A stretch of 64,000 nt of DNA. It comes from a virus. Position numbers and translations under genes: made by a program. Positions 8,874-60,218 of this stretch are shown here, one piece after another. The DNA lies in the IMG/VR virus record IMGVR_UViG_3300017991_000051, positions 1-64,000 of that record, one strand, 5' to 3'. Under the pieces are notes generated by a model, which was not told the origin of the DNA, ran no database searches, and was given only the letters and a program-made list of their open reading frames with translations. Within the stretch, counting starts at the first letter, position 1. Every line of letters starts with the position of its first letter.

Positions 8874-8960
8874 AGCTAACGAAGAGGCCCGTTCCAGGGT
8901 CGGTCTACCTCGCGTCACGGGCCAACGACACGACGTCCGATTGATTTTTGTACAGAGGAA

Positions 8961-9318
8961 TGGAGCCGCTGGGAGTCGAACCCAGGTCCGTTCGAGAGTC
9001 ACCTAGTGACTCATTCACGTGCGTAGTCGCTGATCTGTATACGGCTCATGCGACAAGCCTCTCACGTCTTTCCGTGATTGCCAGCTCTCCCGCTTTTACA
9101 CCACTGTGTTCGGGTAAGCATCCCACACAGCCGGCGACCCGATGTCGTCGTCAGCACCCGCTATCGGGCGTCACCGGGCTGACGATGGTGGCCTAAGCCG
9201 CCATAGGTAGTGCTTCGTTATCGGCACTTGAATGTTTCCGGATGTTTAACGAGGCCAACCGGAGTCCTCGGCACGCAATCACACAGATCCTTCTCGACGT
9301 CGAATCCATTACGGCCCC
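8961..9318 (-). ncRNA. ssrA: tmRNA, tag peptide (A)ADNEALPMAA
   Basis: 5' GGGGCCGTAATGGATTCGAC; 3' CTGGGTTCGACTCCCAGCGGCTCCA (CCA not encoded); tag ORF 9225-9193 GCC GAT AAC GAA GCA CTA CCT ATG GCG GCT TAG. Confidence 0.95.
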
Positions 9319-33271: not shown

Positions 33272-34762
33272 TTACTTTGCAGCCCTCCGCAGCATCGCCT
33301 TCTTGACGAACAGCTCAGGCTCAAATTTCTTATACAGTTTGGGTTCGGATGCCAACAGCGCAGTATGCTCGTTAACCAAACGCTCGAACTCCTTATCGTA
33401 AACCCCGTCATGACCGGTACCCATACAGTGGGCTAACTCGTGGAGAACGATCGATGTCAGCTTTGACACCGGCTGCTCCAGTGCTGCCTTCTTAAGCAGC
33501 TTGACATTGAACGTTATGGACTGGCCGTGGCTGTAGAACGCCATAGTCGTGAACGAGTTCCACGTCGCGTATATGACCACAACGTTCTTCTCGTAGAACC
33601 GACGGCAGAGGAACTGCACGTACTTGCGCAGATGATCCCTCGCCGGGCTATCCTTCACCTCCCGGAAACCCTCCGGCAGCCCCGTTTTCTCCAGCTCGTC
33701 CCGGTCTCGGCAGAACCTCTCCTTCGTGGTCGCGATGCCTCCCGCACGCAGCTTGTGGTTCACGCCGGAACCGAAGGTGCGGGATGATACTATGGTAGCA
33801 CCCGACCGCGCCGCCTCCTGATCCGAGTCCGGATCGTGCGATTGGATAACCGCATTGTCACCGAACTGCTGGTGGAACATGTTGGCCGCCGTCTCCGGAT
33901 CCATCCGGTCATCCTCCATCGCCATCCGGACATGGGACTGGCCCAAATCTCCCGGTTTCATCCTGTCGTGGAGCGCCATCAGCATCTCCGCGTAGATGTC
34001 CTGTAGGAAGGACTGCGGTACCAACGTACGGTCCTGCGACAGCGGAACCTTCTGCTGTACATCGACATCGAACGTACCGCCTATAGTACAGACGGGGATC
34101 CCCATCTCACACAGGTGAGCCTTTTCCTGCCGCTTGTGGTAGAACCAGACCTTAGTGCGCCGGGATGTCTTCGTCATCATCTGTTGGCCTTTGACGGTCT
34201 TAACGTACTCGGTAGACAGCCGTGTGGAAATCTCCTTCAACGGCTTCACGTACTTTAGACGCTCGCCGTTGAGGGTGTATTTGATACCCTTCGGAACGTA
34301 CAGCGCGCAAAGGAATGCGAGCGCTTGATTCAGCTCCTTGTCGGACCAGCGCGGCAACGTTACGATCACCTTGGAGCCTTTGTCCGTCCCGTCCTTGGCG
34401 GCGTGACGGCCGCTCGCATTGAACATGATCGTACCCGTGGTGGTTCGTACCGAGGCAGATATCGCGCGCGCGATTACGAGCTTTTCTCCTAGGTTGTAGC
34501 GCCCCCGAACTGTTGGGTCGCTGCGCTTCTCGGTCGAGCCGAACAACGTATACGCGTCACGTATGTTTTTGAACCCGTCCGGATTGTCGTCCTCGACGAT
34601 CACCTTCGTAGTCTTTGCGTCCTGCTTGATCGTCACCGCACACAGCTTGCCGGCGGTATCCCAGCAGTTCTGTACGAGTTCCGACACCATCCGCTCGGGC
34701 GGAAAGTTCGCGAACATCTCCTTCAGCCCGTCTTTATCCACATCGAACCAACTCTTACTCAT
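33272..34762 (-). CDS. GHKL (Hsp90/MutL/MORC-like) ATPase with C-terminal HExxH domain
   Basis: ELVQNCWD, VEDD..DGF, RGRYNLGEK; LHELAH...GH. Confidence 0.75.
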   Translation of the reverse strand: MSKSWFDVDKDGLKEMFANFPPERMVSELVQNCWDTAGKLCAVTIKQDAKTTKVIVEDDNPDGFKNIRDAYTLFGSTEKRSDPTVRGRYNLGEKLVIARAISASVRTTTGTIMFNASGRHAAKDGTDKGSKVIVTLPRWSDKELNQALAFLCALYVPKGIKYTLNGERLKYVKPLKEISTRLSTEYVKTVKGQQMMTKTSRRTKVWFYHKRQEKAHLCEMGIPVCTIGGTFDVDVQQKVPLSQDRTLVPQSFLQDIYAEMLMALHDRMKPGDLGQSHVRMAMEDDRMDPETAANMFHQQFGDNAVIQSHDPDSDQEAARSGATIVSSRTFGSGVNHKLRAGGIATTKERFCRDRDELEKTGLPEGFREVKDSPARDHLRKYVQFLCRRFYEKNVVVIYATWNSFTTMAFYSHGQSITFNVKLLKKAALEQPVSKLTSIVLHELAHCMGTGHDGVYDKEFERLVNEHTALLASEPKLYKKFEPELFVKKAMLRRAAK

Positions 34763-35195
34763 CCTCCACGTCCTCCTGCAGGAATTCCGGTATGTCGTCC
34801 GGACACGTGTCCGGCGCGTCCACTACGTCCAACCAAGTATGCAGCTCGTCGTACTTCACCGCATTCATCAAATCCTCGTACATACACTGTTTGGCATGTT
34901 CCACCATCTCCTTGTTGTCGAGGTCGACCACGTAGTCGAGGTTCAAAACCACGCGACCCATTCGGCAGTCTGTGTGCGCTTTAGCTTCCTCGCGCGCCGG
35001 GTCATAGAAGTCGAGCCGGCCGGTGTTTATATCCTCGCATAGTGCGTCGACAGCCTCGTCCGATAACGGGGCCATACACTCCTCGTCCGGAGGCGTGCTG
35101 ACAAAGTGCTCCATGCACGCGAAGTCGATCTCGCCGGCATGTTCTTGGCAGTACCTGAGCGCTGCCAGTAAGTGCGCAACTGTTCTATCGTCCAT
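34755..35195 (-). CDS. acidic hypothetical protein
   Basis: 146-aa ORF. Confidence 0.55.
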   Translation of the reverse strand: MDDRTVAHLLAALRYCQEHAGEIDFACMEHFVSTPPDEECMAPLSDEAVDALCEDINTGRLDFYDPAREEAKAHTDCRMGRVVLNLDYVVDLDNKEMVEHAKQCMYEDLMNAVKYDELHTWLDVVDAPDTCPDDIPEFLQEDVEDE

Positions 35196-35394
35196 ACAGC
35201 CTCCTCATTTAACAACGTGGCACGCTTCCATGTACCACTCTGCAGGTTCGCTGGGATCCGGTTCGGGGATATCACCGATACTCACGGTCAGCTTGTCCTT
35301 GTCTATTTCCGACTTATCAATGCCGATATCCCTTACCTGACCACAACAGCTACAGGATAGTCGGATAAACTGACGATTCGGATCTATTATCAGT

Positions 35395-36063
35395 TCAAGC
35401 ATCGTCCATCCCCTTATGTTGAGCAAATGCGTGCATTAGCTCCGCCACCTCCGGAATAGCTTCCGCGTCATTTGGTGGATACTTTTCCAGCAGCGCCAGT
35501 GCTTGCTTAACTATATCGAGCATTTCACGCGTTGATTGCTGAAGCTTTCCGACCTGATTCATCAAGTCTTCTGCTATGGTGCTGGCCTTCCGACCTGTCT
35601 CGATATACTTCGCTACATCGTTCAGCAACGCACCCTCCGGCCATTCCAGCCCGTATTTCTTAAATATGCCGATCACTGCAGCAGTATCCCGCGCCTTCTC
35701 CTCACAGTTACTTTCGCTGTATATCGCGTCCAGCCACGGCTCCGCAGCATCCACCATCGCGTTGTTGATGTCGGAGTAGTCAGGGTGATAGAGCCAATAA
35801 TGGCCACCCATCTCGACCGACACACAGCCGCGGCGACGGTCAAACTGACTAAAGAACTTCCGCTTATCCTGCGGACGTACGAAATAGGTATCATAAAAGC
35901 CCAACCTGTTATAATGAGCTATGAAGGACGCATGCTGAATAAGGTGATTATAAAGCGCCTTCTTGAAGTGATCCAACTTGCACCCGTGTTTGAGGAAGGT
36001 CTTCCACTGCCGGAGTACCGTCTCCTTCTCCTTCGCTGTCATAAATTGAACATCTTTCATCAC
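35395..36063 (-). CDS. hypothetical phage protein
   Basis: 222-aa ORF, SD present. Confidence 0.65.
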   Translation of the reverse strand: MMKDVQFMTAKEKETVLRQWKTFLKHGCKLDHFKKALYNHLIQHASFIAHYNRLGFYDTYFVRPQDKRKFFSQFDRRRGCVSVEMGGHYWLYHPDYSDINNAMVDAAEPWLDAIYSESNCEEKARDTAAVIGIFKKYGLEWPEGALLNDVAKYIETGRKASTIAEDLMNQVGKLQQSTREMLDIVKQALALLEKYPPNDAEAIPEVAELMHAFAQHKGMDDA

Positions 36064-36677
36064 TCACTCCTTCTCTCCCATATTGCGTTTTTGACCATAT
36101 CGATCACAGATTGACGATCTAATTCCGGATGATCGTCTTCGTCACACAACCACGACAGTACATGCTGTAATGCTGTATTCATAACCTCAGCACGCAGTAT
36201 CAGCCCGTCAACGCGCGCATACGACCGCGAAGAGTTTTCGAAATCGCAACGAACGCCATCGTCTAAATCTTTCTCACGCTCCATAGCATCGAGTTGATCG
36301 CGCGCTAGTTGCAACACGCACTCGATATCGTCGTCGCGGCGAGCCATAGGTATATCGTAGCGGTCGGACCATTCGCGAAGTACGTCCTCGCTACCACTAC
36401 CGATGTCTTCCCACTTCCTGATAGCTTTACGAACATAATCGTAACCGTCCGATGTCAGCGGATTATCAAGAAAACATTGACAATAATCACAGTGTTGCGG
36501 ACAGTCCGCCTCGCCTCCGCCGTCCGAGTAAGGACCCTTCGGGAAATCATCGGAATCGAATGTGGCCTCATCGTCCGGATTCTCCGGAGCCTCACCGTTA
36601 TCTGTAAGATCCTTCCGGACCTCGTCACCGCACTGCTCGCACAGCAACGCCGCTTGGTATAGATATACGTTCATCAT
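36060..36677 (-). CDS. hypothetical phage protein with Zn-binding Cys pairs
   Basis: CEQC...DSDDFPKGP...HCDYC. Confidence 0.65.
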   Translation of the reverse strand: MMNVYLYQAALLCEQCGDEVRKDLTDNGEAPENPDDEATFDSDDFPKGPYSDGGGEADCPQHCDYCQCFLDNPLTSDGYDYVRKAIRKWEDIGSGSEDVLREWSDRYDIPMARRDDDIECVLQLARDQLDAMEREKDLDDGVRCDFENSSRSYARVDGLILRAEVMNTALQHVLSWLCDEDDHPELDRQSVIDMVKNAIWERRSE

Positions 36678-36684
36678 CGCTCCT

Positions 36685-36903
36685 TTATGTTCGTTTCCAA
36701 AACCGCGTCGCGTTTTTCCAGCGTACGCGTTCGCGTTCCGTACCTGGCGCCTGGTCGTACCCCACTACCTTGCGCCCGCAAACTGGACAACACTGCTGGT
36801 CGTCCGTTATCGCCGCCCCGCAACATTGCGTGAACATCGTACTGTTTGTTCCCTGTGGCATTAGCGGCACTATATCAACGATAACATCTTCGTTATAGTG
36901 CAT
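36685..36903 (-). CDS. small Zn-ribbon protein
   Basis: CCG...CPVCG; AGGAGG SD. Confidence 0.55.
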   Translation of the reverse strand: MHYNEDVIVDIVPLMPQGTNSTMFTQCCGAAITDDQQCCPVCGRKVVGYDQAPGTERERVRWKNATRFWKRT

Positions 36904-38580
36904 GATTACCTCCTCAGCTGTATCGCTGCTATAAACACAGTCGCAAACAATGCCCAGAAGAGCATCATCCCTATCGCATATTTTATTGCGTCACCATTAG
37001 TGGGACAGATATCCTGCGACGTACCGCGTTCCGGCCTGTTCACGCGTTCAGCGTTCCACCATTTTCTAAACCGATTTATCACTACTTCCTCCTTTCAACG
37101 CGAAGCTGAAGGCGACGCGGTAGATCGCGCGCCTTAGCTCAATCGTTGGAACTCTTGATGAATCTCAAAAGCGTAAATAGTTTTCAGTACGGCTATCACT
37201 GCCTCAATATGTGGCTTGGCCACAAACTTCGGTGTGCATACTTTTCCGTCTGGGCTATGCTTCCATTCGTCGGGGCTCTCGGCCCACGCTTCCAGCTGGC
37301 CGTCATCCAGCGTCTTGAAATGAAACTGCCAATCGTGTCGAGGTAAAACCGATAACATAGGAGAATCCTCCATGGCTCAGGTTATGAATGAACATTGCAT
37401 GCGTTTTGCTGGGCAGCTCCATACCGTTAGTCAGACATGGGACGAATACCAGCTAACCGTAACGATCAGTCCACCATCTAAGCCACTGGCGAAACGATTG
37501 TCACAGTTGTTGACACCGACGAACCAGCTAATGCTGATTTTCAACGAAGGTGCTTGGGAGTTCCAACAAGGAGCTGAAGGCGACGCGGTAAACCGCGCGC
37601 CTTAGCTCAACCGTTGAAAGGTAAACATTATGGAACTTGAACAGTGTTGTCAGAATCCGGCGTGTCCGGACAAAGGTGCCCCGCTACACACTTATACCAC
37701 GGAGCTAATGGCTCACGAGGATCCAGCTCTACCCACGTCTGACACAATAGCGGATACGGACCGCCCGACTTCTCACACAGAGTGTAGCCCAACTTTTCTA
37801 CTTCTTGTCTGCTCAGCTTGCGGTCTGACACGAATGTTTCATCATGAGACACAACTGCAATCGTCCGCCCGTCATCGTCCAGAACGGGGGTCACTTTTGT
37901 AACTTGTGCTGCAAACATTATAACCTCCTTTCAACAAGGAGCTGAAGGCGACGCGGTTGCCCGCGCGCCTTAGCTCAACCGTTGTCTGCATTGAACTGGC
38001 GCTGTACTGGCTGCGCCATGATGATGTGCTGTGCTGCGTGAATCGCGCGGCGAAATTCGGTAGTTTCGTCGGAATGCACCGAGTTAAGTCGCACAAACTA
38101 GTTCCATGCGTCTGCCAGTCTGCTCACGACCGAATTTTCGGCGGCAGACAACAAAGAGGTGGACGGCGACACGGAAACCGCGCCGACCTCCTCTGTTGCT
38201 TCGTTGCGTTGTTCAGCGGTTTCCATGCGCGTCACCTCCAGCGTTGGCAATGAAAGGAATACAGAGATGAAGTACGTTGTTTATCTTGTCGGCCTACCAG
38301 TTGAAAACGGTATAGAAATCCGAAGTGATGAGGATTTACTAACTCTGTTTCGACAGGACGCCGACCCAAATCGTATTATCTCCGTCTCCCGTTATAAACC
38401 AAACGACACACTACTCCGCGTGTCGTCTATCGCGCTTCTCTCCAAGAAAGATTGACGCGGCACGCTCAGCCGCGTTCGCAAGAGTAACTACGCGATCGAA
38501 AAACACCTTGTCCGGTTCTGCCGGATCTTTTTTACTGAGTTCACACTGAAGCACAATATTGAATCGTTCCTGCTTATAGT

Positions 38581-38865
38581 TCATTTTAACCTCCTAATGA
38601 AATTGCCAACAACGCACTGCACGCTATCGGCGTAGGACGCCGAAGCGTGAGTGCAAACGTTCTGCTTTAGGGTTTCCAGCGCCACCAATGCTTCGTCAAT
38701 GTCGCGGATGTTCTCTTGCTCGGCGTCGTCACCGTCAAGGAAGCGTGCCATGTATGCTCTGGCTTTCCACGATTTCCGTGTGTCACGCAGCACCCGCTCG
38801 ATTGTGTGCAAAGCAGAACAATCGGATGGACAACTACCTTCATTCGCCGCGCTTCGCTTTCTCAT
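38581..38865 (-). CDS. cassette ORF, hypothetical
   Basis: starts inside the loop of attC 38813-38892 and runs through attC 38604-38665. Confidence 0.5.
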   Translation of the reverse strand: MRKRSAANEGSCPSDCSALHTIERVLRDTRKSWKARAYMARFLDGDDAEQENIRDIDEALVALETLKQNVCTHASASYADSVQCVVGNFIRRLK

Positions 38866-38898
38866 TTCGGAGTGTCATCCTTTCCGTTAGACAGCAAC

Positions 38899-39144
38899 TC
38901 AGCGTGCAACGCCGCGAAGCTGCATGAACTTCTTTCCGATGCTTTCCACAACGCACTTAGCCTCTGCACCTTCCTCGTTGCGGACGTAGACCGTCTCACC
39001 GTTGCGGAAGATCGGCCACAACCTCTCATCTTGTAGGCTGTTGCGCTTCGGGCCTTCCATGCGGTCGAGGATCTCATCCCTCATGGACTTCAGGGTGGCC
39101 ACATCTTCCGCCGTCTCAAACGTTCCTGTATCTGGTCTTTGCAT
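38899..39144 (-). CDS. cassette ORF, hypothetical
   Basis: GAAAGGA SD; fills the cassette. Confidence 0.55.
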   Translation of the reverse strand: MQRPDTGTFETAEDVATLKSMRDEILDRMEGPKRNSLQDERLWPIFRNGETVYVRNEEGAEAKCVVESIGKKFMQLRGVAR

Positions 39145-39214
39145 GTCTGTCCTTTCTGTTGCTGTCTAACAACTCACTTGAACCGACGCCTAAAGGCGCG
39201 GCTCACTTCGGGCG

Positions 39215-39469
39215 TTAGATTGCCCTTGTGTTCCAGTTGTCCAACGCCTTTTCAAGCGTTTCTCCTGTTGTCTGCGGAGTCACAGGGCATTCCTCGTTGT
39301 CACAGCCCACAAAGTGTTTGGTCGGTGCGCCTCCGTGCCACGGCTCAATGTCTGGCAACATGCCGCAGAATGGGCAATCTAACAAAGCACTGGACTGTAC
39401 TTCTGAAAGCCGCACGTCCGACTTGCCTGAGTGTGATTCAAACACATAGCATCCATTCTCATTTATCAT
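39215..39469 (-). CDS. cassette ORF, Lar-like (restriction alleviation) Zn-finger protein
   Basis: CPFCG...VGC.N.EC...ALDNWNTR. Confidence 0.7.
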   Translation of the reverse strand: MINENGCYVFESHSGKSDVRLSEVQSSALLDCPFCGMLPDIEPWHGGAPTKHFVGCDNEECPVTPQTTGETLEKALDNWNTRAI

Positions 39470-39522
39470 CGTTGTTCCTTTCCCCGGCTTTCAGAAGCCA
39501 GTCAGTTTATGCGTTGGGTTGC

Positions 39523-39714
39523 TCAGTCCTGTCCCTGTCCATGTGACGGCCCCTGTACGAGCCGGTACATCTCCGGCGGAAGGCTGAAGTTTAGAAACTG
39601 ATCGCAGTCCTTCCAACCGTCTTCCCTCAACGCTTGCAGTTTGGTATCCGTCATTCCCCATGCAATCATCAGCTTGCCCATTTCGACTGCCTGTTCTCTT
39701 GTGTAGCCTTTCAT
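39523..39714 (-). CDS. cassette ORF, hypothetical phage protein
   Basis: AGGAG SD; fills the cassette. Confidence 0.5.
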   Translation of the reverse strand: MKGYTREQAVEMGKLMIAWGMTDTKLQALREDGWKDCDQFLNFSLPPEMYRLVQGPSHGQGQD

Positions 39715-39788
39715 CGTCCTTCTCCTTTCGTTCGCAACCCAACAACCCCGTGCACCCGACTCGCTAAGGCTCGCGGGTAACGGCGGCG

Positions 39789-40043
39789 TTAGATTTCCAG
39801 CCTTAGCAACTCAACAACTTTACGGTCCTGTTCGTTTCCTGTCTCAATCGTCAAACGGCCTTCCTCGAACGCCCTTCGCACGAATGGTCCCAACAAGCCG
39901 ACTTGATCCCCGTACACTTTCATCTTGTCATAGATGTAACCGATACTGTTGCCCATGTAGGTCTGGTTTGCCAACGAATGTTGTAGGTGCTCGATTTCAT
40001 CCTTCAACTCATTCAGATCGTCCAACTCAACCTCAACCTTCAT
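39789..40043 (-). CDS. cassette ORF, hypothetical
   Basis: AGGAGG SD; stop TAA overlaps the R' box GTTAGAT. Confidence 0.55.
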   Translation of the reverse strand: MKVEVELDDLNELKDEIEHLQHSLANQTYMGNSIGYIYDKMKVYGDQVGLLGPFVRRAFEEGRLTIETGNEQDRKVVELLRLEI

Positions 40044-41424
40044 ACCTGCCTCCTTTTGCGGCTGGAAATCTAACAACTGCGTGGACGTTATCGGCTACCC
40101 GCCGAAACGTCACGCGACGCGTTGGACATATTGACTGCCGCGTGCGCAACGGGCTTGCCGCAGATCACGCATTTCCCGGCGCTGTCCGGCCTGACTTTGT
40201 GCTTGCCGCCCATGTAGCAAGCGCCATAATACAACCCGCACCACTTACGATGCTTGGCCCAGTCGAACACCATGAGTCCGCATCTCGGGCACTTGTCACA
40301 CGTCACGTTGGTTCTCCTTCCTGCCCAACAACTCACTTGAACCGACGCCTATCGGGCGTATCATCCTCGCCTCGCTTTCTCGCACCGCTTGCACAGGCGA
40401 CGGTTCGGTGGGGGGTGGGTGGTTTCGTGCCAGCCAGCCCATTCGTGCCAAACAGTTAAGCAGTTGGTTATCCCCCAATGCTCGCGCTCGGTGACGTGAA
40501 ACCTGTGGCGGATTACATGGTACACCCTGCCTCGGGCGGTGTGGGCGTAGCGGGGGGTCATAATGCACCATCCTCGTCGGGCCGCTGGTGGTCGCTGGCA
40601 AGACGCCCCAAGCGCACCCGCACGTCGGGGTGCAGAAGGTTGTTGCCATCCAGCCAACACTCAAACTCATGTAGGATGCCGTTGACGCCAACAGTCACGA
40701 GGCACTCCTGAATGTTCTCTACGCGCTGGTCTAGGAATGTTCCGAATAATGATGGTCCCATTTTGCCCTCCTTTGTCGTGCCTTCCTCATATCGCCTTCC
40801 GGCAAATCTGCTCGCCACGGGGTCCAATATCCTGTTATCAGGCAAAATCGCCTGTCAATCAGTGGTTGGGCGTATCACTTTCACCGCCTCCCACGAAATG
40901 CGGAATGGTACACCCCGCAAACATCGCCGCCTTTTGCAGAAAGTCCTGCCGACCCTCGGCGGTGTCATCGGGAGGCCACACAAACTTCTCGATGATTTCC
41001 TTGGCCCGCGTCAGTTCCTCGTTCAACTCCGTGATCTTGATCGCTCGTCTGTCTGCCTTGTTCATCGGTCCTCCTCGCCCAACCAAGGGCTGCAATCTAC
41101 CTCGCTATTCGCTCGGAGCTTGAGCCCCGGCGTTCTGCGCCATTCGTTTCTTGGCCTCATTCTCAAGCTCAAGCCGTCGTATTTCATTTTCAACCTTCAT
41201 TTCCCAATCAAGCTCTTGCAGATTGTGGGCCTTAATCCATGAATCTACTCGCCGCTTCTTGATCCACTCCGTATAGCGCAGAACAAGGCGCTGGACACTA
41301 CGGCTTGCCCGCAGTTTCCAAACCCGACCCATTCTGCACAGCCATTGCCACAGATTCTCGTGCATCACGCCTCCTTGTTGTCGGCAAGCCGAGTGTCAGC
41401 TTGCACGTTGGAGTAACCAAAACA

Positions 41425-41667
41425 ATGAATAATGAAAATACCTTATGGGAGCAACTTGATGATGCTCTGAAGCGTATCGAGCAACTTGAGCACCAAGTAG
41501 CTACGATCCGGAGGAAGACTAGCGCGAGCATCAATGGGTACGCCCGCGTTCTCCACAAGATCGCCGCCCACTTGGGTCTCAGCCGGTGTTTCACATTTTG
41601 CAGCACGATCGATGTCGGCGATGCTGACAGAGTCGTTATGCGGCATATTACACCTCCTTTAGATTAA
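41425..41667 (+). CDS. cassette ORF, coiled-coil (paralog of 42898-43143)
   Basis: GGAG SD from the attC end; MNNENTLWEQLDDALKRIEQLEHQV. Confidence 0.55.
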   Translation: MNNENTLWEQLDDALKRIEQLEHQVATIRRKTSASINGYARVLHKIAAHLGLSRCFTFCSTIDVGDADRVVMRHITPPLD

Positions 41668-41736
41668 AAAACTCCAACAAGGAGCTGAAGGCGACGCGGT
41701 TGCCCGCGCGCCTTAGCTCAACCGTTGGAAACCGAT

Positions 41737-41964
41737 ATGAAAAAACAAAACACAAAAGCATTGCTCGACCGCCTAGACGAACTTATCGATCAGTTGCCAA
41801 CCGATGAACAACGCCAGTTCCATGTTCACGCGCTGTGGAATTTGTTGTCTCTGCATGCCATTGCTGATGTGCAACGTAAACTTGCTCTAATGTCAGGCTT
41901 GTTCGGTCTCCTTGGCGTGCTTCTCGGCGCGGCTCTAACATACATAATACAACGGTACAAATGA
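41737..41964 (+). CDS. cassette ORF, small membrane protein
   Basis: C-terminal TM segment LMSGLFGLLGVLLGAALTYII. Confidence 0.55.
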   Translation: MKKQNTKALLDRLDELIDQLPTDEQRQFHVHALWNLLSLHAIADVQRKLALMSGLFGLLGVLLGAALTYIIQRYK

Positions 41965-42097
41965 CCAAGCCGGTAACAATACCAATACAGCCACCGATAA
42001 TTCCATGGGATATCATAAACACCTCCTCTAATTGTTTCCAACAAGGAGCTGAAGGCGACGCGGTAGATCGCGCGCCTTAGCTCAACCGTTGTGAAAT

Positions 42098-42316
42098 ATG
42101 ATTATTCAAGTACCTAACTCATTACGTCGTCGGTTTGTTGCGGGCTGCCGAACGCTCGGGCTCGATCCGAGTCTAAGCGTTGATCTATCGAAAGATCAGT
42201 TGCCCGAGTATCATGTACAGACAGAGACCCCGGAACAGCGGGCGGGTTTGCATCGTCTCTGCGCAGCCTTATCGCTCTCGCAAGAACAACTGCCGCCGCA
42301 TGCCGAAGAGACGTGA
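42098..42316 (+). CDS. cassette ORF, hypothetical
   Basis: ATG immediately after attC. Confidence 0.45.
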   Translation: MIIQVPNSLRRRFVAGCRTLGLDPSLSVDLSKDQLPEYHVQTETPEQRAGLHRLCAALSLSQEQLPPHAEET

Positions 42317-42554
42317 GTAGAAATATGTCGTCAGGTTCAACGTATTTGCGAAGCTCGGGTTTTATCTCAAGCACACCCATGTCAAAATATGCGTACTCTC
42401 CGTCTTTGTTTATCAATGAGCCCGGTACTCTATCGTTCAAAAATTCCAATATATCGATCATGTATACCTCCATTCACAACAAACGGCTGGAGCTTACCGG
42501 CTAAGGCGCCGGAAGCTCAGCCGCATCGTTGGACTTAAGATAGGAACACAGTTC

Positions 42555-42815
42555 ATGAACGAAGTTATTCAACAGATCAAGGAGCACTTCGCCGCTGGGG
42601 CCTCCTCCGTGACTCTCGTCTACTCCGACCGCACTGTGTTCATACACGCTCTTCCGCGGAATCCGAGTCCGGAGCAGACCTACGCCTATCGCGCGTTCTG
42701 TTCTCGAATCGAAAAAGATCTCGATACTCTCCATGTTATTGACGTCCGGCAAGGAGTTTGGCTCCGCCAGTACGACACCGTTTCCGGAAAATTCAGTCTT
42801 GTCCGCCATGATTAA
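42555..42815 (+). CDS. cassette ORF, hypothetical
   Basis: AGGA SD; fills the cassette. Confidence 0.5.
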   Translation: MNEVIQQIKEHFAAGASSVTLVYSDRTVFIHALPRNPSPEQTYAYRAFCSRIEKDLDTLHVIDVRQGVWLRQYDTVSGKFSLVRHD

Positions 42816-42897
42816 AACCTCCTGATTGTCCAACAAGGAGCTGAAGGCGACGCGGTAAACCGCGCGCCTTAGCTCAACCGTTGGAGTAACCAAAACA

Positions 42898-43143
42898 ATG
42901 AATAATGAAAATACCTTATGGGAGCAACTTGATGATGCTCTGAAGCGTATCGAGCAGCTTGAGCACCAGGTTGAAACGATCCGAAGAGAGACCAATACGG
43001 TCATTAACGGATACGCCCGCGTGCTCCACCACATCACCACCCTTCTTAAAATCAGGGATGACGTTGTGCTTTGCGACACTACCGACGTCGGTAGTGAGAA
43101 CGTGATCATGCGTCGTGCCCATAATAAACCTCCACTAGATTAA
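42898..43143 (+). CDS. cassette ORF, coiled-coil (paralog of 41425-41667)
   Basis: fills the cassette; first 25 aa identical to the paralog. Confidence 0.55.
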   Translation: MNNENTLWEQLDDALKRIEQLEHQVETIRRETNTVINGYARVLHHITTLLKIRDDVVLCDTTDVGSENVIMRRAHNKPPLD

Positions 43144-43225
43144 AGAAGACTCCAACAAGGAGCTGAAGGCGACGCGGTAGACCGCGCGCCTTAGCTCAAC
43201 CGTTCGCAAATAGAAAGGAAACGTA

Positions 43226-43480
43226 ATGACTCCAGACCAGCAAGCCGATCTTGAAGGACGTCTCCTCATGCTGGAAGCGCTCGTTCAGATGTTTCTGGTG
43301 GAACATCTTCGCCGAGCGCCTGATATCGTATCGGATGCGGGAGCGCTGACCACCGACTGCCTGAAGTCGTTTGCTTCTGCGCCCCCTCCAGTTTCTGAGC
43401 GAGCTGCCGCAAGATTGCGGCAACTGCTTGACGCAAGTATCGCATGCGCATCTGTACTTCCTCCTTTTCCTTTGTATTGA
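43226..43480 (+). CDS. cassette ORF, helical hypothetical
   Basis: GAAAGGA SD; stop just before the next attC. Confidence 0.55.
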   Translation: MTPDQQADLEGRLLMLEALVQMFLVEHLRRAPDIVSDAGALTTDCLKSFASAPPPVSERAAARLRQLLDASIACASVLPPFPLY

Positions 43481-43544
43481 TGTTGCGAACAAGGAGCTGA
43501 AGGCGACGCGGTTGCCCGCGCGCCTTAGCTCAACCGTTGGCATT

Positions 43545-43778
43545 ATGATTGTAGATCTATCCAATCTTCCTCAATCCACGCTTGTCGCGCTAACGCAAGC
43601 CAGTCGCGAGTGCGGATTGACCGTTTCGAGTTCAGCTCCGGTATCTCCACTGGGCCCGACCAGCCTACGGATATATCTTGATCGGACTGAACTTCCGATG
43701 TTACAGCAGCTTTGCGCCGCACAAGGCGTTCGGCTAAATCCTTGGCCACATCTGCCAGACGCTTTGCAAGCCACTTAG
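43545..43778 (+). CDS. cassette ORF, hypothetical
   Basis: ATG 3 nt after attC. Confidence 0.4.
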   Translation: MIVDLSNLPQSTLVALTQASRECGLTVSSSAPVSPLGPTSLRIYLDRTELPMLQQLCAAQGVRLNPWPHLPDALQAT

Positions 43779-44134
43779 TATCCTCAAGCTCCAACGGCTG
43801 ATACGCCGCACGGACCGCCATCGCCCCAAAAACGATGCAGCGGTCATCAACAACTACGTCGATTAGCGGATGAAGAACATCTGTAACCTCTATCATGATA
43901 TTGACTCCTTACATGCCAACAATCGGCTGGAGCTTACCGGCTATGGCGCCGGAAGCTCAGCCGCAACGTTACGCAGGCCAACACTTGAACCCAGCAGGAA
44001 GGCGCCGTACGCCTTCCCACTCTCGGGCCCACTTCCTCGCGCCCGCCTCGTCAACGGGCTCCTCGAACTCGACAGGCCCCAGCGCATACGCGTCACGGGG
44101 AAACTTTACATACCATCTCTTCGCTATCATGACC

Positions 44135-44842
44135 TTACCTCACTACAAATCCTGTTGTGTCCCTTCGTGCATCCCCCTTCGCGCTCAATCCCACCACCGC
44201 CGGCGATGGATCGAGAAAGCGTAGATCACTGTCGTCACCCGTGAGTACGGGGTAACCCCAGTGGGTTTGCGGAATCTTCTCGAATATGACTGCTACGTTG
44301 TGCCCGGCCGCGAGGGTGCGCTTGCACGCCGCCTCGTTACATATGCCCCGACTGAGCAACAGGTAGTAGTTAGGACGCTTCACCGTCCGCACCCGCCTCG
44401 ATGAACGGGTGTAGTCGTAGAACTGGACCGATGGAAACCGCGCCATGATATTGCCGAACTCCGGCGAATACCACGGGATATCGCTCGTGCCATTCAGACG
44501 CACGGCCGGGCCCATACCCTGCCGGTACGCTTTCCTGACGAGCGCAGCGATATCGTCGCACAGCTGATCGATGAATCCCCCACGATCATCGAACAACCAG
44601 CGCGTCTTCCTGATCCTCGATTCCTTTACGCTATCAAACTGTCCTCGACCTGCCGTGTACAGGCAAGCCCTGCGACAGCCTCTGTCCGCGAATGGGCAGA
44701 CGTTATACTTTCGTCCTGCGTTTGTTGCCGACGCTAAGTGAAGAATTCCCGTGAGCCACCCCTTCTTCTCACCCTTCCGGGTCTTAGCGTTCGACGTCGT
44801 CAGTAATCTCATTGTGTGTCCCAATTTTGTATTACGATACAA
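44135..44842 (-). CDS. phage Gp88-like protein
   Basis: VCP.A..GC..ACL..AGRG, VRLNGTSDI, QFYDYT, GDDSDLRFLD. Confidence 0.75.
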   Translation of the reverse strand: MYRNTKLGHTMRLLTTSNAKTRKGEKKGWLTGILHLASATNAGRKYNVCPFADRGCRRACLYTAGRGQFDSVKESRIRKTRWLFDDRGGFIDQLCDDIAALVRKAYRQGMGPAVRLNGTSDIPWYSPEFGNIMARFPSVQFYDYTRSSRRVRTVKRPNYYLLLSRGICNEAACKRTLAAGHNVAVIFEKIPQTHWGYPVLTGDDSDLRFLDPSPAVVGLSAKGDARRDTTGFVVR

Positions 44843-44850
44843 ACTCTTTA

Positions 44851-45099
44851 TCAGAGTAAACCTAGTTCATCGACCAGCTCACCGAACGTGGGAGCCGGCT
44901 CGTCCAACGCTTCTTCGACGGCTTCCTTGCCGCCCTCTATCTGCTCCGGAGCATAAACGTCCCATGTCTCCACGTGGACGCCTCCCATCTCCGTTCGTTC
45001 TTTGCGGCAGAATACGCGACCGTCCGCCGTCCATCTCAGGGGCGTCACGGACACATTACCTTTCGCAAGCGTCACCTTCGGATCGTCGTCAGTGTACAT
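44851..45099 (-). CDS. hypothetical protein
   Basis: 82-aa ORF. Confidence 0.5.
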   Translation of the reverse strand: MYTDDDPKVTLAKGNVSVTPLRWTADGRVFCRKERTEMGGVHVETWDVYAPEQIEGGKEAVEEALDEPAPTFGELVDELGLL

Positions 45100-45174
45100 T
45101 ACGCGCCCCCATAAAGAAAACGCCCAGCGAGTCCCCCCGCTGGGCGTCGTTAACTGCTATCATGGTCGCGGCTA

Positions 45175-45939
45175 CTACCGCTTCTTGCCCTTCTTGGGCT
45201 TCGGCGGTTTGACAACCTCCGCTACGCGCTCGAACGCTTCCTTCGCAAGGTCCCGCTGCGTGTTCCACGTGCCGACGAGAGACTCGAACGCGCTGTTACC
45301 GGCGTCGAAATGCTCGTACGCCCGCTTCATCCGGTCCGGATCATCGCCGTAGCAGATGGTCTCAACATACCTGCCGATGGCCTTCAGCTTCTGCTCGAAC
45401 AGCAGAATAAGGTTCTCCGAGTTCTTCACCACGCGGACGGCCTGCGACATGTTCTTCGCATCCTGATCCACCTCCGCGGGCTTCCCGGATCCCAGCCGCT
45501 TGGCCAACGCGTCCTTGACATCGAACGCCGCCGGCTTCTGCATGCTCTTGACCGCCTCCTCGAGGATGGCATTGCGCACCTCGGGCGTGACGTTCTTGCT
45601 GCATAGCAACAGCGCCTTACGAAGCGACAGCGTCGCCTCCTGCGCCATCTGCAGCTGCTTCTCCGTGAAGTTCTTCTTGATCGACTGCGCGTCGTACAGG
45701 GATTCCTTACCGAGCCGGATCTTGCCGGCCTCGAACAGGTCCTGCGAGAACTTCTCCACGCTCTGCTTGCCGTACTTGTCGTGCTGGGACGTCAGCTCCT
45801 CGACCTTCGCACCCAGGTTCCAATAGAACTCGAGCGACCGGCTGTAGAACTGGCGGGCCATTACCACCGTCTCACCAACCAACTGTTTGTAGTTGACCGA
45901 CGGAGACTGATTCCTTCTCTTCGCTACTGCTTTACTCAT
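45175..45939 (-). CDS. hypothetical protein (N-terminus DUF1016-like)
   Basis: YWNLG...YGKQSVEKFSQDL. Confidence 0.55.
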   Translation of the reverse strand: MSKAVAKRRNQSPSVNYKQLVGETVVMARQFYSRSLEFYWNLGAKVEELTSQHDKYGKQSVEKFSQDLFEAGKIRLGKESLYDAQSIKKNFTEKQLQMAQEATLSLRKALLLCSKNVTPEVRNAILEEAVKSMQKPAAFDVKDALAKRLGSGKPAEVDQDAKNMSQAVRVVKNSENLILLFEQKLKAIGRYVETICYGDDPDRMKRAYEHFDAGNSAFESLVGTWNTQRDLAKEAFERVAEVVKPPKPKKGKKR

Positions 45940-45952
45940 GTGTTCCTCTCCT

Positions 45953-46408
45953 CTAGTCCAACGGCCGCGCCTGCAACACGTGATTTTTACGTGTGCGCAT
46001 GTCGCGGAACAAGCCGCCGAATACGTTGACCATCTTGATTCTCGCCTCAATGTTGAGCAGGCTATGTGCCGTACGTCGCGATTCCAGCGACATGCCGGAG
46101 GCGTCAGCTTCCATCAGGATGCGCCGTTCCTCCGGGCTGAGTCCGTCCTGCAAGACGTTCTCGATGTCCTTCGAGCACATCACGCCCAATACCGTCTTGA
46201 GATTCATCACCAACCGAATGACGGGTGATGCGTTAGCCAATTTCTTGAATAGCCCATACGTGGGCTGTGAAAGCCGCCGTTCCAACACCTCCGCCAACAA
46301 TCTCTCCAGACGGGGTGCAGTGGTCGCAATCTGTTCCAACCGCTCTATCGGCTGTTGCATACCCAGGTCGGGCTTAGGCTTGGAAAAACCTTTACCTTTG
46401 CTGCCCAT
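45953..46408 (-). CDS. hypothetical protein
   Basis: AGGAGG SD. Confidence 0.6.
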   Translation of the reverse strand: MGSKGKGFSKPKPDLGMQQPIERLEQIATTAPRLERLLAEVLERRLSQPTYGLFKKLANASPVIRLVMNLKTVLGVMCSKDIENVLQDGLSPEERRILMEADASGMSLESRRTAHSLLNIEARIKMVNVFGGLFRDMRTRKNHVLQARPLD

Positions 46409-46934
46409 AACATACCTCCTTGCTCAGCCTCCAATCGAATGCACGCTTCAGCATCGCAACGAACCCGGTTAGCGGGTCTACTACGTACTCGTCTCCCGGC
46501 AACTCCACGCGCCAGTACGGCTCCTCCTTACACAGGTATGCTTCCGTACAGTTGTGGATTACCATCTCCGGCATACCGTCGCCAACGCTGGCGAAGATAA
46601 CGCCGACCAGTCCGTCGGGATAGCTGTCTCGCGCCTCCTCCATCTCGGTGTAGATCCGGCTCTTCTCCGGTTTCTTCATCAGCGCCGTGAACGGAACCTT
46701 CTTCGCGGACTTGTACGATGCGAGCCGAACCGGAAAGTTCGGGCAAGCTTGCACGAACCACGCGAGTCCGAACTCGTCACCAACGAGCTTCTGCAGTCGG
46801 GACGCAAGTCCCGCTTCCTCCTCCAGGCCGCGGAGCAGTATGAGCAGAGCCTTCTGATCAAACCGCTCCTGCTTCTGCCTGAAGTCGCTCTTCTTCTGCA
46901 GGCCGAGGAATGTCTCCATCTCCGGATCATGCAT
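46392..46934 (-). CDS. hypothetical protein
   Basis: 180-aa ORF overlapping the RecA-like stop. Confidence 0.6.
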   Translation of the reverse strand: MHDPEMETFLGLQKKSDFRQKQERFDQKALLILLRGLEEEAGLASRLQKLVGDEFGLAWFVQACPNFPVRLASYKSAKKVPFTALMKKPEKSRIYTEMEEARDSYPDGLVGVIFASVGDGMPEMVIHNCTEAYLCKEEPYWRVELPGDEYVVDPLTGFVAMLKRAFDWRLSKEVCYGQQR

Positions 46935-48126
46935 CCTTAGTCGGCTCCATAGTCCCGTTGAATACGGGGTGTTGCTGGATGTGCAGTGCGTCCTCTATCG
47001 CCGGACGCAGCTCGTGCCCCTCAATAAGCTCGCCGAATTCGGCGGCCTTGAGCGGACTATCCTTCTTGATGCCCAGCGTATCGGACCAGAACACGGCACC
47101 GACAACCTGCTTCTGCGTCGTGTTGATGTCGAGGATATCCGTCAGGTATCGCGCGTTGGCGGACAGTACCATCGCCGTCGCCGACGACCAGTCCCACCAC
47201 GATATCTGCTTGTTGTCCTCGAACTTCCAGCAGAACGTCACCGGCAGCTTCTTCTCTACGTCCGAGCCCATCGATGACTTACGAACGCTCAACGTCAAGC
47301 TCTTCGCTTGCAGGGAAGTTCTACTGTACGTCACTGACTTACCCATGGCGGTTACGCCGCCCTTCTTGAACTGGATATCCAGTGTCGCGTAGAAGTCGGG
47401 CGCCTTACCGCCAGCGCGACCCATCCCCTGGCCGCCTATCTTCGGCTTCTCGTGATGCGACATATGCAACGTGATCGGCCAGCCCAGCAGGGTGTTGGGA
47501 AACGACTTCATGAACTGGCTGATGAGGATTGGTGCGTCTGAAAAAGTCCTTCCTTCCGCTTCCCCCTCCGACCTGATGTGCTCCAAACCTTCGGCGCTGC
47601 CGGATCCCAGCATGGAATCGACGGCCCAGAAGATCGGAAACGACGGCTTCTTCCCCATCTTGTCCACCAGTTCGTTCAGTTTCTCATACTGCTTGTTCAG
47701 CAGCCGTTGCCACTCGTTGATCGTCGTCGCGTTCAGAATGAGCAGCCGGCGATGCTTCGGATCGTTCTCGTCGAAAAACTCCGGCGGGATGATCGATCGC
47801 ATCAGCGATCCACTCGTCTTGTACTCGGTATCGATCAGGCAGGCGAAGCCGCCAGCCTCCAGATACCACGAGATCAGCTCGAAAATGAAACTGGACTTCT
47901 GCGTTCCAAACGCGCCCCCCGATTGCGTCACGCGCGCAAGCGGCCAGCCGTTCGACTCGATAAGCCACCGCAGTGCCAGTGGTTTGATCGGCAGTACCAC
48001 CTGCCGTTTTTCGTGTTCCGCTGCCACGTAGCAGCGCTCCGTACCGAACTCGCTCTCCGCCACGGCCAGCGCCGCGTCCACGAAGTCGTCGATATCCAAT
48101 GCTACTTTTTTCTTGGCTGCTGCCAT
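46927..48126 (-). CDS. RecA/UvsX-like recombinase
   Basis: GWPLARV, divergent Walker A GAFGTQKS, LIDTE, Walker B WAVDS, GGKAPDFYA. Confidence 0.8.
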   Translation of the reverse strand: MAAAKKKVALDIDDFVDAALAVAESEFGTERCYVAAEHEKRQVVLPIKPLALRWLIESNGWPLARVTQSGGAFGTQKSSFIFELISWYLEAGGFACLIDTEYKTSGSLMRSIIPPEFFDENDPKHRRLLILNATTINEWQRLLNKQYEKLNELVDKMGKKPSFPIFWAVDSMLGSGSAEGLEHIRSEGEAEGRTFSDAPILISQFMKSFPNTLLGWPITLHMSHHEKPKIGGQGMGRAGGKAPDFYATLDIQFKKGGVTAMGKSVTYSRTSLQAKSLTLSVRKSSMGSDVEKKLPVTFCWKFEDNKQISWWDWSSATAMVLSANARYLTDILDINTTQKQVVGAVFWSDTLGIKKDSPLKAAEFGELIEGHELRPAIEDALHIQQHPVFNGTMEPTKDA

Positions 48127-48208
48127 CTTATTTACCTCCAACCTGTGCAAAATATGCACAGGACCGGCCCGAAGGCCGGTCCCATGCGGTTATAGTCACT
48201 TGAACTGA

Positions 48209-49582
48209 CTATTGTGCTGCAGGTGTCCCTCCACGCAGCTGGCTCAGCTTCTCCATGGCCCCCTGCACGTCAGCGTCGTTGTTCGTCGCTGCCGCCGCGG
48301 GTTGTGCTGCTGCCGGTGCCTGCGCGGGTGCCCCGCCACCTGCTGCATGCAAGTCATCCGGCCTGATGTCGCGAGCGAAGCCGTTGTCGGCTGGCTCCGA
48401 GCCTTCAGGTGCCGGAGTGTTCGTATTGTCCCAATCGACAACCGCCGCACCGTCCGCTGCTGGCTGTGCGCCCTGCGCGGCTGGGGGTGGTACTGTCTGT
48501 GCCGGTTCGTCCGGCGACTGCGGGCCTGCGGCAGCCGCTTCAGGGCCACCCATAACCTGCACAGTCGCGTTCCCCTTCACGAAGTCCGGGAGGTACGCCG
48601 CGTAAGGACGCAGACACTGCAGAAGCAGCGCCGGCAGATCCTCATAGGCGCGAACGATCATGTCCACCATCTCCTTCTCGGAGAGGAATCGGATCGTCTT
48701 CTCCCATGGCGTGAACACCTGGCTTTCCACGGCGAACCGCAGTCTACCATCCGGCAGTCTCGGGAGTGGCAACGGCTGCCTGAGTTCGCACGCATAGCGC
48801 GCCAACGTCTGCTGTGACCGCTGCTGTTGGCCATTCCCCTTACCGGCATTACCCCAGTCGACGTTCTCGTTCGACGTCTCAGTGCCGGCATTGGCGTTGT
48901 AGAAAGATAGTATCCGGCCGGAATCAGCCCCGAGGATGTCGCCGCACACGAAGCGCTTATTGAAATCATCCGGGCTGCCGTTGTAACCTTCAACTTCCTT
49001 ATTCAGTGACTCCTCGAGCGCGATACACGCGGACTCGCTGAGCATCATGAGTGTCGGCAACTGCGGCCGAGTATAGTAGTCGTACGTCCCGTGTTTGAGC
49101 AGGACCGCCTGCACGAGGCCAAACGCCTTCAACTTCTTGGGAAGTGCAGGCCCTCGGTTCTGTGCTCCTTCGAGCAGGATATGCTTCAGCCGTCCGGTGG
49201 AGTCGTTCCACGCCGCCTTCTTCGCGCCGTCGATGAACTCGGTTACCGGTGTCGGATGAATATCCGTGTCCAGCGCATCGCCCGGACTGTCCGGATCTCC
49301 ATACGCGGGAATGAACGTCAGTGTACGCGCGGTACCGCCTTGGAAGATCGGTACGCGTACGATCCATGGACCGAAGTTGTTCTCTTCCGGGCCAAAGCGC
49401 CACGGAAGGAAGTCCTTCCCGTCCTCCGTGAGGGGACCGACCGGTCGGAAGTGGGTTTCCAACTTTACGTTCTTATCCCACTTCAGTTTCCAGATCGATC
49501 CTCGGTATTCCGAGGTTGTTACCAACATGCCCCGGGTACTTCTCTTCGTGTATGCCTGCGATGCGTCCTTATACGATTTCAT
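48209..49582 (-). CDS. putative single-stranded DNA-binding protein
   Basis: between polymerase and recombinase; low-complexity acidic/Ala-Pro C-terminal tail; largely positional inference. Confidence 0.4.
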   Translation of the reverse strand: MKSYKDASQAYTKRSTRGMLVTTSEYRGSIWKLKWDKNVKLETHFRPVGPLTEDGKDFLPWRFGPEENNFGPWIVRVPIFQGGTARTLTFIPAYGDPDSPGDALDTDIHPTPVTEFIDGAKKAAWNDSTGRLKHILLEGAQNRGPALPKKLKAFGLVQAVLLKHGTYDYYTRPQLPTLMMLSESACIALEESLNKEVEGYNGSPDDFNKRFVCGDILGADSGRILSFYNANAGTETSNENVDWGNAGKGNGQQQRSQQTLARYACELRQPLPLPRLPDGRLRFAVESQVFTPWEKTIRFLSEKEMVDMIVRAYEDLPALLLQCLRPYAAYLPDFVKGNATVQVMGGPEAAAAGPQSPDEPAQTVPPPAAQGAQPAADGAAVVDWDNTNTPAPEGSEPADNGFARDIRPDDLHAAGGGAPAQAPAAAQPAAAATNNDADVQGAMEKLSQLRGGTPAAQ

Positions 49583-49602
49583 CTTTTCCTCCGTTTTTTC
49601 AG

Positions 49603-52599: not shown

Positions 52600-52600
52600 G

Positions 52601-52942
52601 TTATCCTCGTATGAATTTGCTCGTTTCTATCCACATGTGAATAGCTTTCTTTCGTGACGGCTGCAGGCTCGCATGATTCGGGCCCATCCAGCCGCACTTC
52701 GGACAGCGGACCTGCCACCAGCCGGTCCATGGCCCCTTCGCCACCTCCTCCACGATCGGTTCGGTACGACACAGCTTGCATCGTCCCGGCTCCTCATCGG
52801 GTACCTCCGGAGGACGTCTACGTGACTTCGCATTGCATCCGGGGCACCGTTCGAACTGCTTAACGCTCTCGTATATGTAACCCTTCTTGCACGCGAGACA
52901 GCGTATATAGATGTCACCGTAGTGCTCGTACCACTTAGGCAT
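52601..52942 (-). CDS. small double Zn-finger protein
   Basis: CLAC..CPGC..CKLC..CPKC; AGGAGG SD. Confidence 0.55.
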   Translation of the reverse strand: MPKWYEHYGDIYIRCLACKKGYIYESVKQFERCPGCNAKSRRRPPEVPDEEPGRCKLCRTEPIVEEVAKGPWTGWWQVRCPKCGWMGPNHASLQPSRKKAIHMWIETSKFIRG

Positions 52943-60146: not shown

Positions 60147-60218
60147 TGGTGGGCGGGGATGGATTCACACCACCGACCTCCGGGTTGTAGCCCGGCGCTC
60201 TTACTGAGCTACCCGCCC
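60147..60218 (-). tRNA. atypical tRNA (Val-TAC-like) with a 6-nt anticodon loop
   Basis: GGGCGGG/CCCGCCC-A-CCA acceptor, GCTC/GAGC D stem, CCGGG-CTACAA-CCCGG anticodon arm, T loop TGTGAAT. Confidence 0.75.

Follow-up and report, generated by a model that had tools for sequence, protein, structure and literature searches.

Integrons are regarded as bacterial devices, and the phage examples of integron arrays published so far are, to our knowledge, few and small. How, then, did a phage genome with no integrase come to hold a run of some 20 gene cassettes? The question is posed by positions 37093-43974 of IMG/VR record IMGVR_UViG_3300017991_000051, a phage genome of 169,252 bp whose first 64 kb (64,000 nucleotides, here called the window, with the presented strand as the + strand) had been annotated from the sequence alone. 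We consider it probable that this region is a genuine integron-type cassette array, namely a cluster of attC sites lacking an integron integrase (CALIN), that its cassettes were inserted by an integron integrase (IntI) supplied in trans by the host, and that most of its genes are inverted. The inverted coding polarity is the most unusual feature of the array and had been overlooked in the first-pass annotation.

attC sites of the phage array

Reading 36.8-44.3 kb and folding every candidate yielded 19 well-defined attC sites, to which a decayed site (40822-40871) and a truncated remnant (at 40323) are added, 21 in all. The array extends from the first base of site 1 (37093) to the last base of site 19 (43974); the polarity is uniform, the + strand being the attC top strand throughout. 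The first-pass annotation had counted about 21 attC-like palindromes over this interval, eight of them near-identical, and had likened the one at 39164-39220 to the aadA type, and all three observations hold. The 19 sites are 57-143 nt long and share one layout, which reads 5' to 3' as a heptamer ending in AAC (R''), a 3-nt spacer, a stem, a loop, a return arm, a 4-nt spacer and a heptamer beginning with GTT (R'). The AAC of R'' and the GTT of R' are invariant in all 19 sites and in a 14-site alignment. The 5' arm of the + strand carries two extrahelical bases, 6 bp apart, the second of which is an invariant A (T on the bottom strand); the same arrangement is seen in attC_aadA1.

To score the sites we used two covariance models: R1, built from 14 phage sites only, and R2, a proxy model built from 27 external sites (aadA1, three from Tetrasphaera phage TJE1 and 23 metagenomic) with no phage site and no member of the major phage attC family described below. 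Run on the whole 169-kb genome, R1 finds 16 sites at 32-80 bits, all on the + strand and all within 37093-43974, and R2 returns the same 16 at 31-69 bits and nothing more. R1 has no match in 610 kb of unrelated bacterial DNA. On 50 kb of plasmid R100 its single match is attC_aadA1, on the aadA1 coding strand, and in phage TJE1 its matches are the three published attC sites and no others, located at the genome's head and on the gene strand. The L''/L' palindrome is conserved as structure: 93% of alignment cells are paired, 10 of the 12 L-box pairs show compensatory double changes, and none of 500 shuffles reaches the observed covariation. On this sequence evidence the phage sites are genuine integron-type attC.

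Eight of 20 sites are near-identical (family A), two form a second family (family B) and the other ten are unique types. The right arm CGCGCGCCTTAGCTC is present eight times and the left arm GAGCTGAAGGCGACGCGG seven times, site 1 carrying one change; every copy is on the + strand, and neither the family-A nor the family-B motif has a copy outside the array in the 169,252-bp genome. Neighbouring sites are at most about 750 nt apart across 20 sites, the decayed one at 40822 included. The spacing and distance limits for a CALIN are reportedly 4 kb.

Cassette signature and array borders

What marks a gene cassette is that its own R'' is complementary to the first six bases past the crossover. As the first-pass annotation had noticed, the phage array displays this throughout: the R' heptamer is the exact reverse complement of the next site's R'' in 17 of 18 intervals, and the remaining interval (40128-41076) is bridged, with one mismatch, by the decayed site at 40822-40871. 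In the phage backbone, by comparison, a GTTNNNN word is followed by its complement at a distance of 100-1000 nt in only approximately 5% of cases (binomial p about 1e-21). Each unit thus bears the mark of a former circular cassette joined at G|TT. We also considered attC circles without an open reading frame (ORF) that had been inserted between existing phage genes; these would put the partner heptamer directly beside each R'' and not at the previous site, and the idea was rejected.

The heptamer signature looks the same when the strands are exchanged and so, on its own, leaves the polarity of the array undecided. The assignment of the + strand as the attC top strand follows from the extrahelical bases, from the matches to the aadA1 and TJE1 sites and from a pair of paralogous cassette interiors, c12 (41414-41671) and c16 (42887-43149). 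The right-hand attCs of c12 and c16 belong to a common family and their left-hand attCs are unrelated, so the cassette unit consists of an interior plus the attC on its right on the + strand.

At the right border, site 19 ends in a simple G|TT, its R' (GTTACGC) overlapping the stop codon of a backbone gene (ORF 43969-44130), which fits cassette entry at a secondary site. At the left border, a 58-aa ORF (36906-37082, - strand) abuts site 1, and no attI-type boundary is found at this end of the array.

Inverted coding polarity of the cassettes

The canonical cassette has its ORF on the top strand of the attC, which follows the ORF on the 3' side, and the phage array departs from this arrangement. 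As a control we used 54 metagenomic cassettes, each bounded by two model matches. The top strand has a positive purine excess in 2 of 18 phage interiors vs 50 of the 54 metagenomic cassettes (Fisher p = 1.6e-10). Among cassettes in which one strand had the longer ORF, this ORF runs forward in 49 of 53 metagenomic cassettes vs 5 of 17 in the phage, where it runs in reverse in 12. At 14 of the 19 sites the motif CAT-N(5-9)-CCTCC, that is, a - strand Shine-Dalgarno sequence and start codon, lies within 40 nt upstream of R'', and the gene caller of the ENA record places all but three array genes on the - strand. Taken together, these signals indicate that in approximately two thirds of the cassettes the gene lies on the bottom strand of the attC, in the direction of phage transcription, with its start signals directly after R''.

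Codon use and purine skew are phage-like in the middle cassettes, and one of the inverted genes can be named. The 84-aa ORF at 39215-39469 (-) resembles Lar-like restriction alleviation proteins (PF14354, E 5.5e-6; phrog_599, E 3.2e-7); its start codon lies within the loop of the 143-nt site 8, and it is a putative counter-defence gene of phage type. Cassette c9 (39789-40043, -) encodes another 84-aa product, a small, helical phage protein that is conserved, its nine homologues being 49-63% identical to it. Four of these were sampled, on 12 contigs, which are phage-like and without attC; this implies that genes of phage families can become cassettes. AlphaFold2 models the c9 protein as a helical hairpin (predicted local distance difference test score, pLDDT, 83) without a fold match. 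The third case is the 117-aa gene of cassette c18 (43543-43896, -): a homologous cassette (41% identity) is found in an unrelated attC array (L249), where it is likewise inverted and framed by the same GTTGGCA/TGCCAAC pair, and we take this recurrence to mean that an inverted cassette moves as a unit of its own. Apart from the Lar-like gene, Pfam and PHROGs searches of the cassette proteins were uninformative, and tblastn of these proteins against cultured phages returned nothing.

A minority of cassettes, mostly with a family-A attC, appear to carry forward genes. The paralogous interiors contain + strand ORFs of 80 aa (41425-41667) and 81 aa (42898-43143). Across the pair, the ratio of nonsynonymous to synonymous substitution rates (dN/dS) is 0.22 in the + frame vs 0.55 in the - frame, and the purine excess is positive (+0.05 for 41425-41667, whose antisense ORF is also open). 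Neither ORF has a database homologue, so that the case for 42898-43143 as a real gene is made by dN/dS and purine skew. A probable third forward ORF (41737-41964, +, 75 aa, with a hydrophobic C-terminal segment) is placed on the + strand by the ENA gene caller.

Recombinase searches and the proposed route of cassette entry

The first-pass annotation had described the phage as lacking an integrase, and we extended this to the complete genome: six-frame searches with PF00589 and TIGR02249 gave no match even at E = 1, neither to an intI gene nor to a pseudogene, and in the same genome no Y1 transposase and no convincing resolvase was found. By the definition of Cury et al. 2016 (PMC4889954), a CALIN has two or more closely spaced attC sites and no integron integrase in the vicinity, and the phage array has both properties. 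It is not a complete integron, having no intI with an adjacent attI and cassette promoter (Pc). Nor does it have the make-up of a captured sedentary integron, given that homogeneity extends to 8 of 20 sites, the polarity is inverted and phage genes flank both ends.

Since the phage has no tyrosine recombinase, the cassettes would have had to come in through an integron integrase supplied in trans. We infer that an IntI of the host, or another distal one, is the most economical explanation of the array: the infected host would supply the enzyme, which would insert cassettes and may still exchange them, and read-through transcription of the phage - strand would express the inverted genes. The structural part of the first-pass interpretation (real attC sites with the signature of circular cassettes) is supported, and its further step, shuffling by a host or distal IntI, is retained as a proposal.

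An array of 20 cassettes with phage-oriented genes, an anti-restriction gene among them, suggests that phages can exploit host integron machinery for the exchange of accessory and counter-defence genes. It also provides concrete material on how cassettes arise, with phage gene families that elsewhere lack attC standing here as cassettes in the 'wrong' orientation. A broader reading, to which we give slightly less credence than doubt, is that phages keep a pool of inverted cassettes of their own, with genes that start after or inside the attC, and exchange them via the IntIs of parasitised hosts, the present phage having one of the largest arrays. If this were true, inversion would allow phage read-through to express every cassette, and it would put the recombinogenic bottom strand on the non-template strand.

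Comparison with known attC arrays

The available part of Qi et al. 2023 (PMC9892861) describes 17 phage CALINs with at least two attC sites each, three in the case of Tetrasphaera phage TJE1. Two of the three TJE1 sites were in the IntI1 assay panel and were recombined by IntI1, and the cassettes of TJE1 and PH101 are oriented as is most typical of bacterial arrays; that part of the text contains no mention of an inverted coding polarity in phage CALINs. TJE1 resembles our phage in having a cluster of attC sites without integron integrase in an integrase-less genome, and its sites are detected by the same model, R1. It differs in size, with three sites and four ORFs vs approximately 20 cassettes here, an array about six times larger, and in polarity: the TJE1 genes are on the attC top strand, the canonical orientation, whereas those of our phage are mostly on the bottom strand.

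With sedentary chromosomal integrons (for example the Vibrio cholerae superintegron) and the environmental integrons of metagenome contigs L137 and L146, the phage array has in common its length, its small cassettes and the partial homogeneity of its attC sites. L137 and L146 have family-A sites as well, and an exact R'/R'' complementarity across each cassette is common to all of these arrays. Unlike the other systems, the phage array lacks intI, attI and Pc, lies within a phage, mixes attC types and has mostly inverted genes.

Site 39164-39220 has the R'' (GTCTAAC), the R' (GTTAGAT) and the CCGACGCC/GGCGCGGC core of attC_aadA1 from the class 1 integron In2 of R100, and its extrahelical bases are placed as in that site, 6 bp apart. 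Differences lie in the sequences of loop and outer stem, and site 39164-39220 is adjoined not by a resistance gene but by a small phage ORF on the opposite strand.

Finally, cassette insertion catalysed by IntI outside att sites is reported for bacterial genomes (bioRxiv 10.1101/2022.09.11.507474). Such insertion is a possible route of entry for the first cassette in a genome without attI, and the simple G|TT of the right border is in line with it; the phage case differs in that the insertions described are in bacterial genomes and in that its own left border is not intact.

Family-A sites in metagenomes and searches elsewhere

Exact matches to the 29 specified bases that define family A were found in at least 100 metagenome contigs, which come from a wide range of habitats. 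The same-strand ORFs that precede family A in these contigs are diverse, including BNR-repeat, MFS, LCM methyltransferase and URO-D genes, and family A is found in arrays with other attCs of the same polarity, with ten sites in one contig. In L137 a family-A site ends the first cassette, which adjoins an attI-type GTTAGGC junction and a divergent partial IntI (TIGR02249, 255.9 bits over the part present). The BNR-repeat cassette with a family-A attC is seen in seven contigs (L124, L129, L139, L141, L148, L157 and L183), and the R' heptamer and neighbour that follow it change from contig to contig, which is direct evidence that family-A cassettes move in nature. We also noted ORFs of 329-330 aa with an IS200-like Y1 transposase domain and a helix-turn-helix domain in or beside metagenomic attC arrays (L130, 4726-5712; L158, 1049-2035; L195, 3693-4682).

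Beyond metagenomic arrays the searches were negative. An 18-mer scan of viral contigs for family A gave two chance matches, and the family-B pattern gave none. A 16-mer scan of genome contigs for the family-A left arm gave only chance single matches (approximately 280 expected, an estimate), none of which is an attC by R1.

Alternative explanations

Several observations weigh against an array assembled, and possibly still exchanged, by host IntI. At its left end the expected GTTGAAA boundary was not found, neither next to site 1 nor to the left of the 58-aa ORF, so this border is not intact. The coding strand is ambiguous in five or six family-A cassettes: several of those in 41414-43483 are open over nearly their full length on both strands, with a start signal for each ORF. 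The decay or truncation of three or four sites suggests that part of the array is no longer recombinogenic. Family A was not found in 401 sampled Planctomycetota genomes, distant relatives of the phage (GP88, 45% identity) have no attC sites, and on the other large contigs that carry the cassette proteins the neighbouring genes are unchanged, with no array variant seen. In addition, 23 of the 27 training sites of R2 had themselves been found with R1.

Some of these points are what would be expected if a piece of a bacterial chromosomal integron had been captured in one illegitimate recombination and passively inherited ever since, with no further exchange. Decayed sites, a broken left boundary and the lack of variants all agree with such a fossil, as does the near-identity of 8 of 20 sites, a feature of sedentary chromosomal integrons; fragments of this kind are reported from Vibrio phages (Qi et al. 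2023, PMC9892861). We nevertheless judge this explanation unlikely. The coding polarity is opposite to that of bacterial arrays with the same attC family, the middle cassettes have phage-like codon use, purine skew and genes of phage families, the attC sites are heterogeneous, with ten unique types, and no bacterial genes lie beside the array.

Less likely still, and by a wide measure improbable, is an autonomous system in which an unrecognised phage recombinase, not a tyrosine recombinase of the IntI type, acts on the hairpins. Many large ORFs of the phage have no recognisable family, which leaves room for such an enzyme, and two candidates might be named. One is a sub-threshold resolvase-like match beyond the window (genome 65769-66056, +), but it scores only 15.9 bits and lies in a 416-aa frame interrupted by a TGA stop codon. 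The other is the 383-aa ORF at window 4005-5156 (-), which matches the transposase-annotated phrog_4285 (E 3.7e-29); no Pfam domain is present in it, and 33 kb separate it from the array. Moreover, the sites are indistinguishable from canonical attC, and one of their families is used by a real IntI-bearing integron.

That the array is an artefact, either a chimeric join with host DNA, to which repeated 59-nt sites might lead a short-read assembler, or a set of attC-like terminators or regulatory stem-loops, to which the intergenic position of the sites might point, is hardly credible and largely refuted: judging by the contig name, the assembly used k = 141, which exceeds the length of the repeats, a promoter and terminator scan gave no more matches than shuffled sequence, and terminators do not have an exact heptamer chain, extrahelical bases of this architecture or identity to an attC family from the environment. 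A second assembler, moreover, recovers the same sequence. Logan contigs of SRR6963352 (from which run the ENA assembly may or may not derive) are 100% identical over 33906-37133, 38204-41435 and 43511-53896, thus covering the middle of the array and both borders, where the first-pass annotation had asked for the assembly to be confirmed, and they break only within repeated attC sequence or at the 41407-41483 repeat. These contigs indicate that the array is not an assembly artefact.

Individual sites and cassettes

All sites are given on the + strand with their R1 and R2 scores. At the left end, site 1 (37093-37151; R'' TTTCAAC, R' GTTGGAA; 68.7 and 44.7 bits) folds with both extrahelical bases, and it is followed by two further family-A sites, site 2 (37561-37619; 80.2 and 62.8 bits) and site 3 (37929-37987; 74.6 and 56 bits). 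Site 4 is long (38146-38249, 104 nt; 39.1 and 31.2 bits), and the heptamer chain fits on both sides of it; site 5 (38604-38665) scores 57.5 and 48.8 bits. Site 6 (38813-38892) is a decayed attC with a weak fold (-5.6 kcal/mol) that neither model detects, although its chain is exact with sites 5 and 7. The aadA1-like site is site 7 (39164-39220; 42.8 and 52.8 bits), with R'' and R' as in attC_aadA1. Site 8 (39377-39519), with the start of the Lar-like gene in its loop, folds at -20 kcal/mol and continues the chain exactly on both sides; it is undetected by R1 and R2, which penalise long loops.

In the middle of the array, site 9 (39737-39794; 53.9 and 41.1 bits) and site 10 (40068-40127; 52.7 and 43.3 bits) are followed by the truncated remnant (40323-40360), which consists of R'' and left arm only and is 91% identical to the left half of site 7, and by the decayed 50-nt site (40822-40871; R'' GTCCAAT, R' GTTGGGC), which completes the chain between sites 10 and 11. 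Site 11 (41077-41138) scores 32.8 and 33.8 bits, and the long site 12 (41278-41413, 136 nt) folds at -26.7 kcal/mol and has an exact chain on both sides. The right-hand part is made up of family-A sites 13 (41672-41730; 78.5 and 63.3 bits), 14 (42036-42094; 78.5 and 64.5 bits), 16 (42828-42886; 79.4 and 68.6 bits), 17 (43150-43208; 76.4 and 63.2 bits) and 18 (43484-43542; 73.4 and 61.1 bits), and of family-B sites 15 (42474-42534; 66.9 and 54.2 bits) and 19 (43914-43974; 62.4 and 50.5 bits), the latter forming the right end of the array.

The remaining inverted genes are small. A 96-aa ORF (37628-37918, -), whose AGGAGG and ATG abut R'' of site 3, returns only itself in a homologue search. An 81-aa ORF (38899-39144, -) has a codon score of 0.36 and is also predicted by the ENA gene caller. 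Between 40088 and 41365 there is a run of five - strand ORFs (40088-40306, 40361-40561, 40558-40818, 40859-41095 and 41105-41365) with ribosome-binding sites, phage-like codon scores and purine excess of -0.13 to -0.31.

Phage genome context

The record is classed by IMG/VR as having direct terminal repeats (95 bp when checked) and has a CheckV completeness of 100%. Its large ORFs are nearly all on the - strand. The array is surrounded by genes for a family-A DNA polymerase, helicases, a DnaB-like helicase and UvsX-like, SbcC-like and GP88-family proteins, the GP88 gene (PF17338; 44135-44842, -) lying directly to its right. The rest of the genome contains a tail-sheath-like match, an RNA polymerase beta-like protein and a DNA ligase. 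The record is a complete, integrase-less 169-kb genome of a contractile-tailed phage, with the array in the early/replication region. SPO1-like phages are its closest cultured relatives, at a polymerase identity of only approximately 25%; megablast against cultured phages gave no match, a query with the UvsX-like protein for related phages found none, and no terminase or HK97-capsid Pfam family was found among the phage proteins. Two proteins identical to cassette proteins of the array are also recorded on a contig of 187,491 bp, longer than the 169,252-bp record.

Several other features of the genome deserve mention. The window encodes a full-length tmRNA (8958-9318, -; Rfam RF00023, 131.5 bits), to which ARAGORN gives the tag peptide ADNEALPMAA, and a tRNA gene (60147-60218, -; Rfam 53.5 bits), to which it assigns no anticodon. 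The family-A DNA polymerase (49603-52599, -) has, in the Pfam list of the ENA record, a match to uracil-DNA glycosylase (PF03167) beside its exonuclease and polymerase domains. Beyond the window, at genome 137789-139660 (-) and 140182-142419 (-), are an RNA polymerase beta-subunit-like protein (phrog_25354, phrog_3015) and an ATP-dependent DNA ligase. Possibly the phage has a multisubunit RNA polymerase of its own, which bears on how the array is transcribed.

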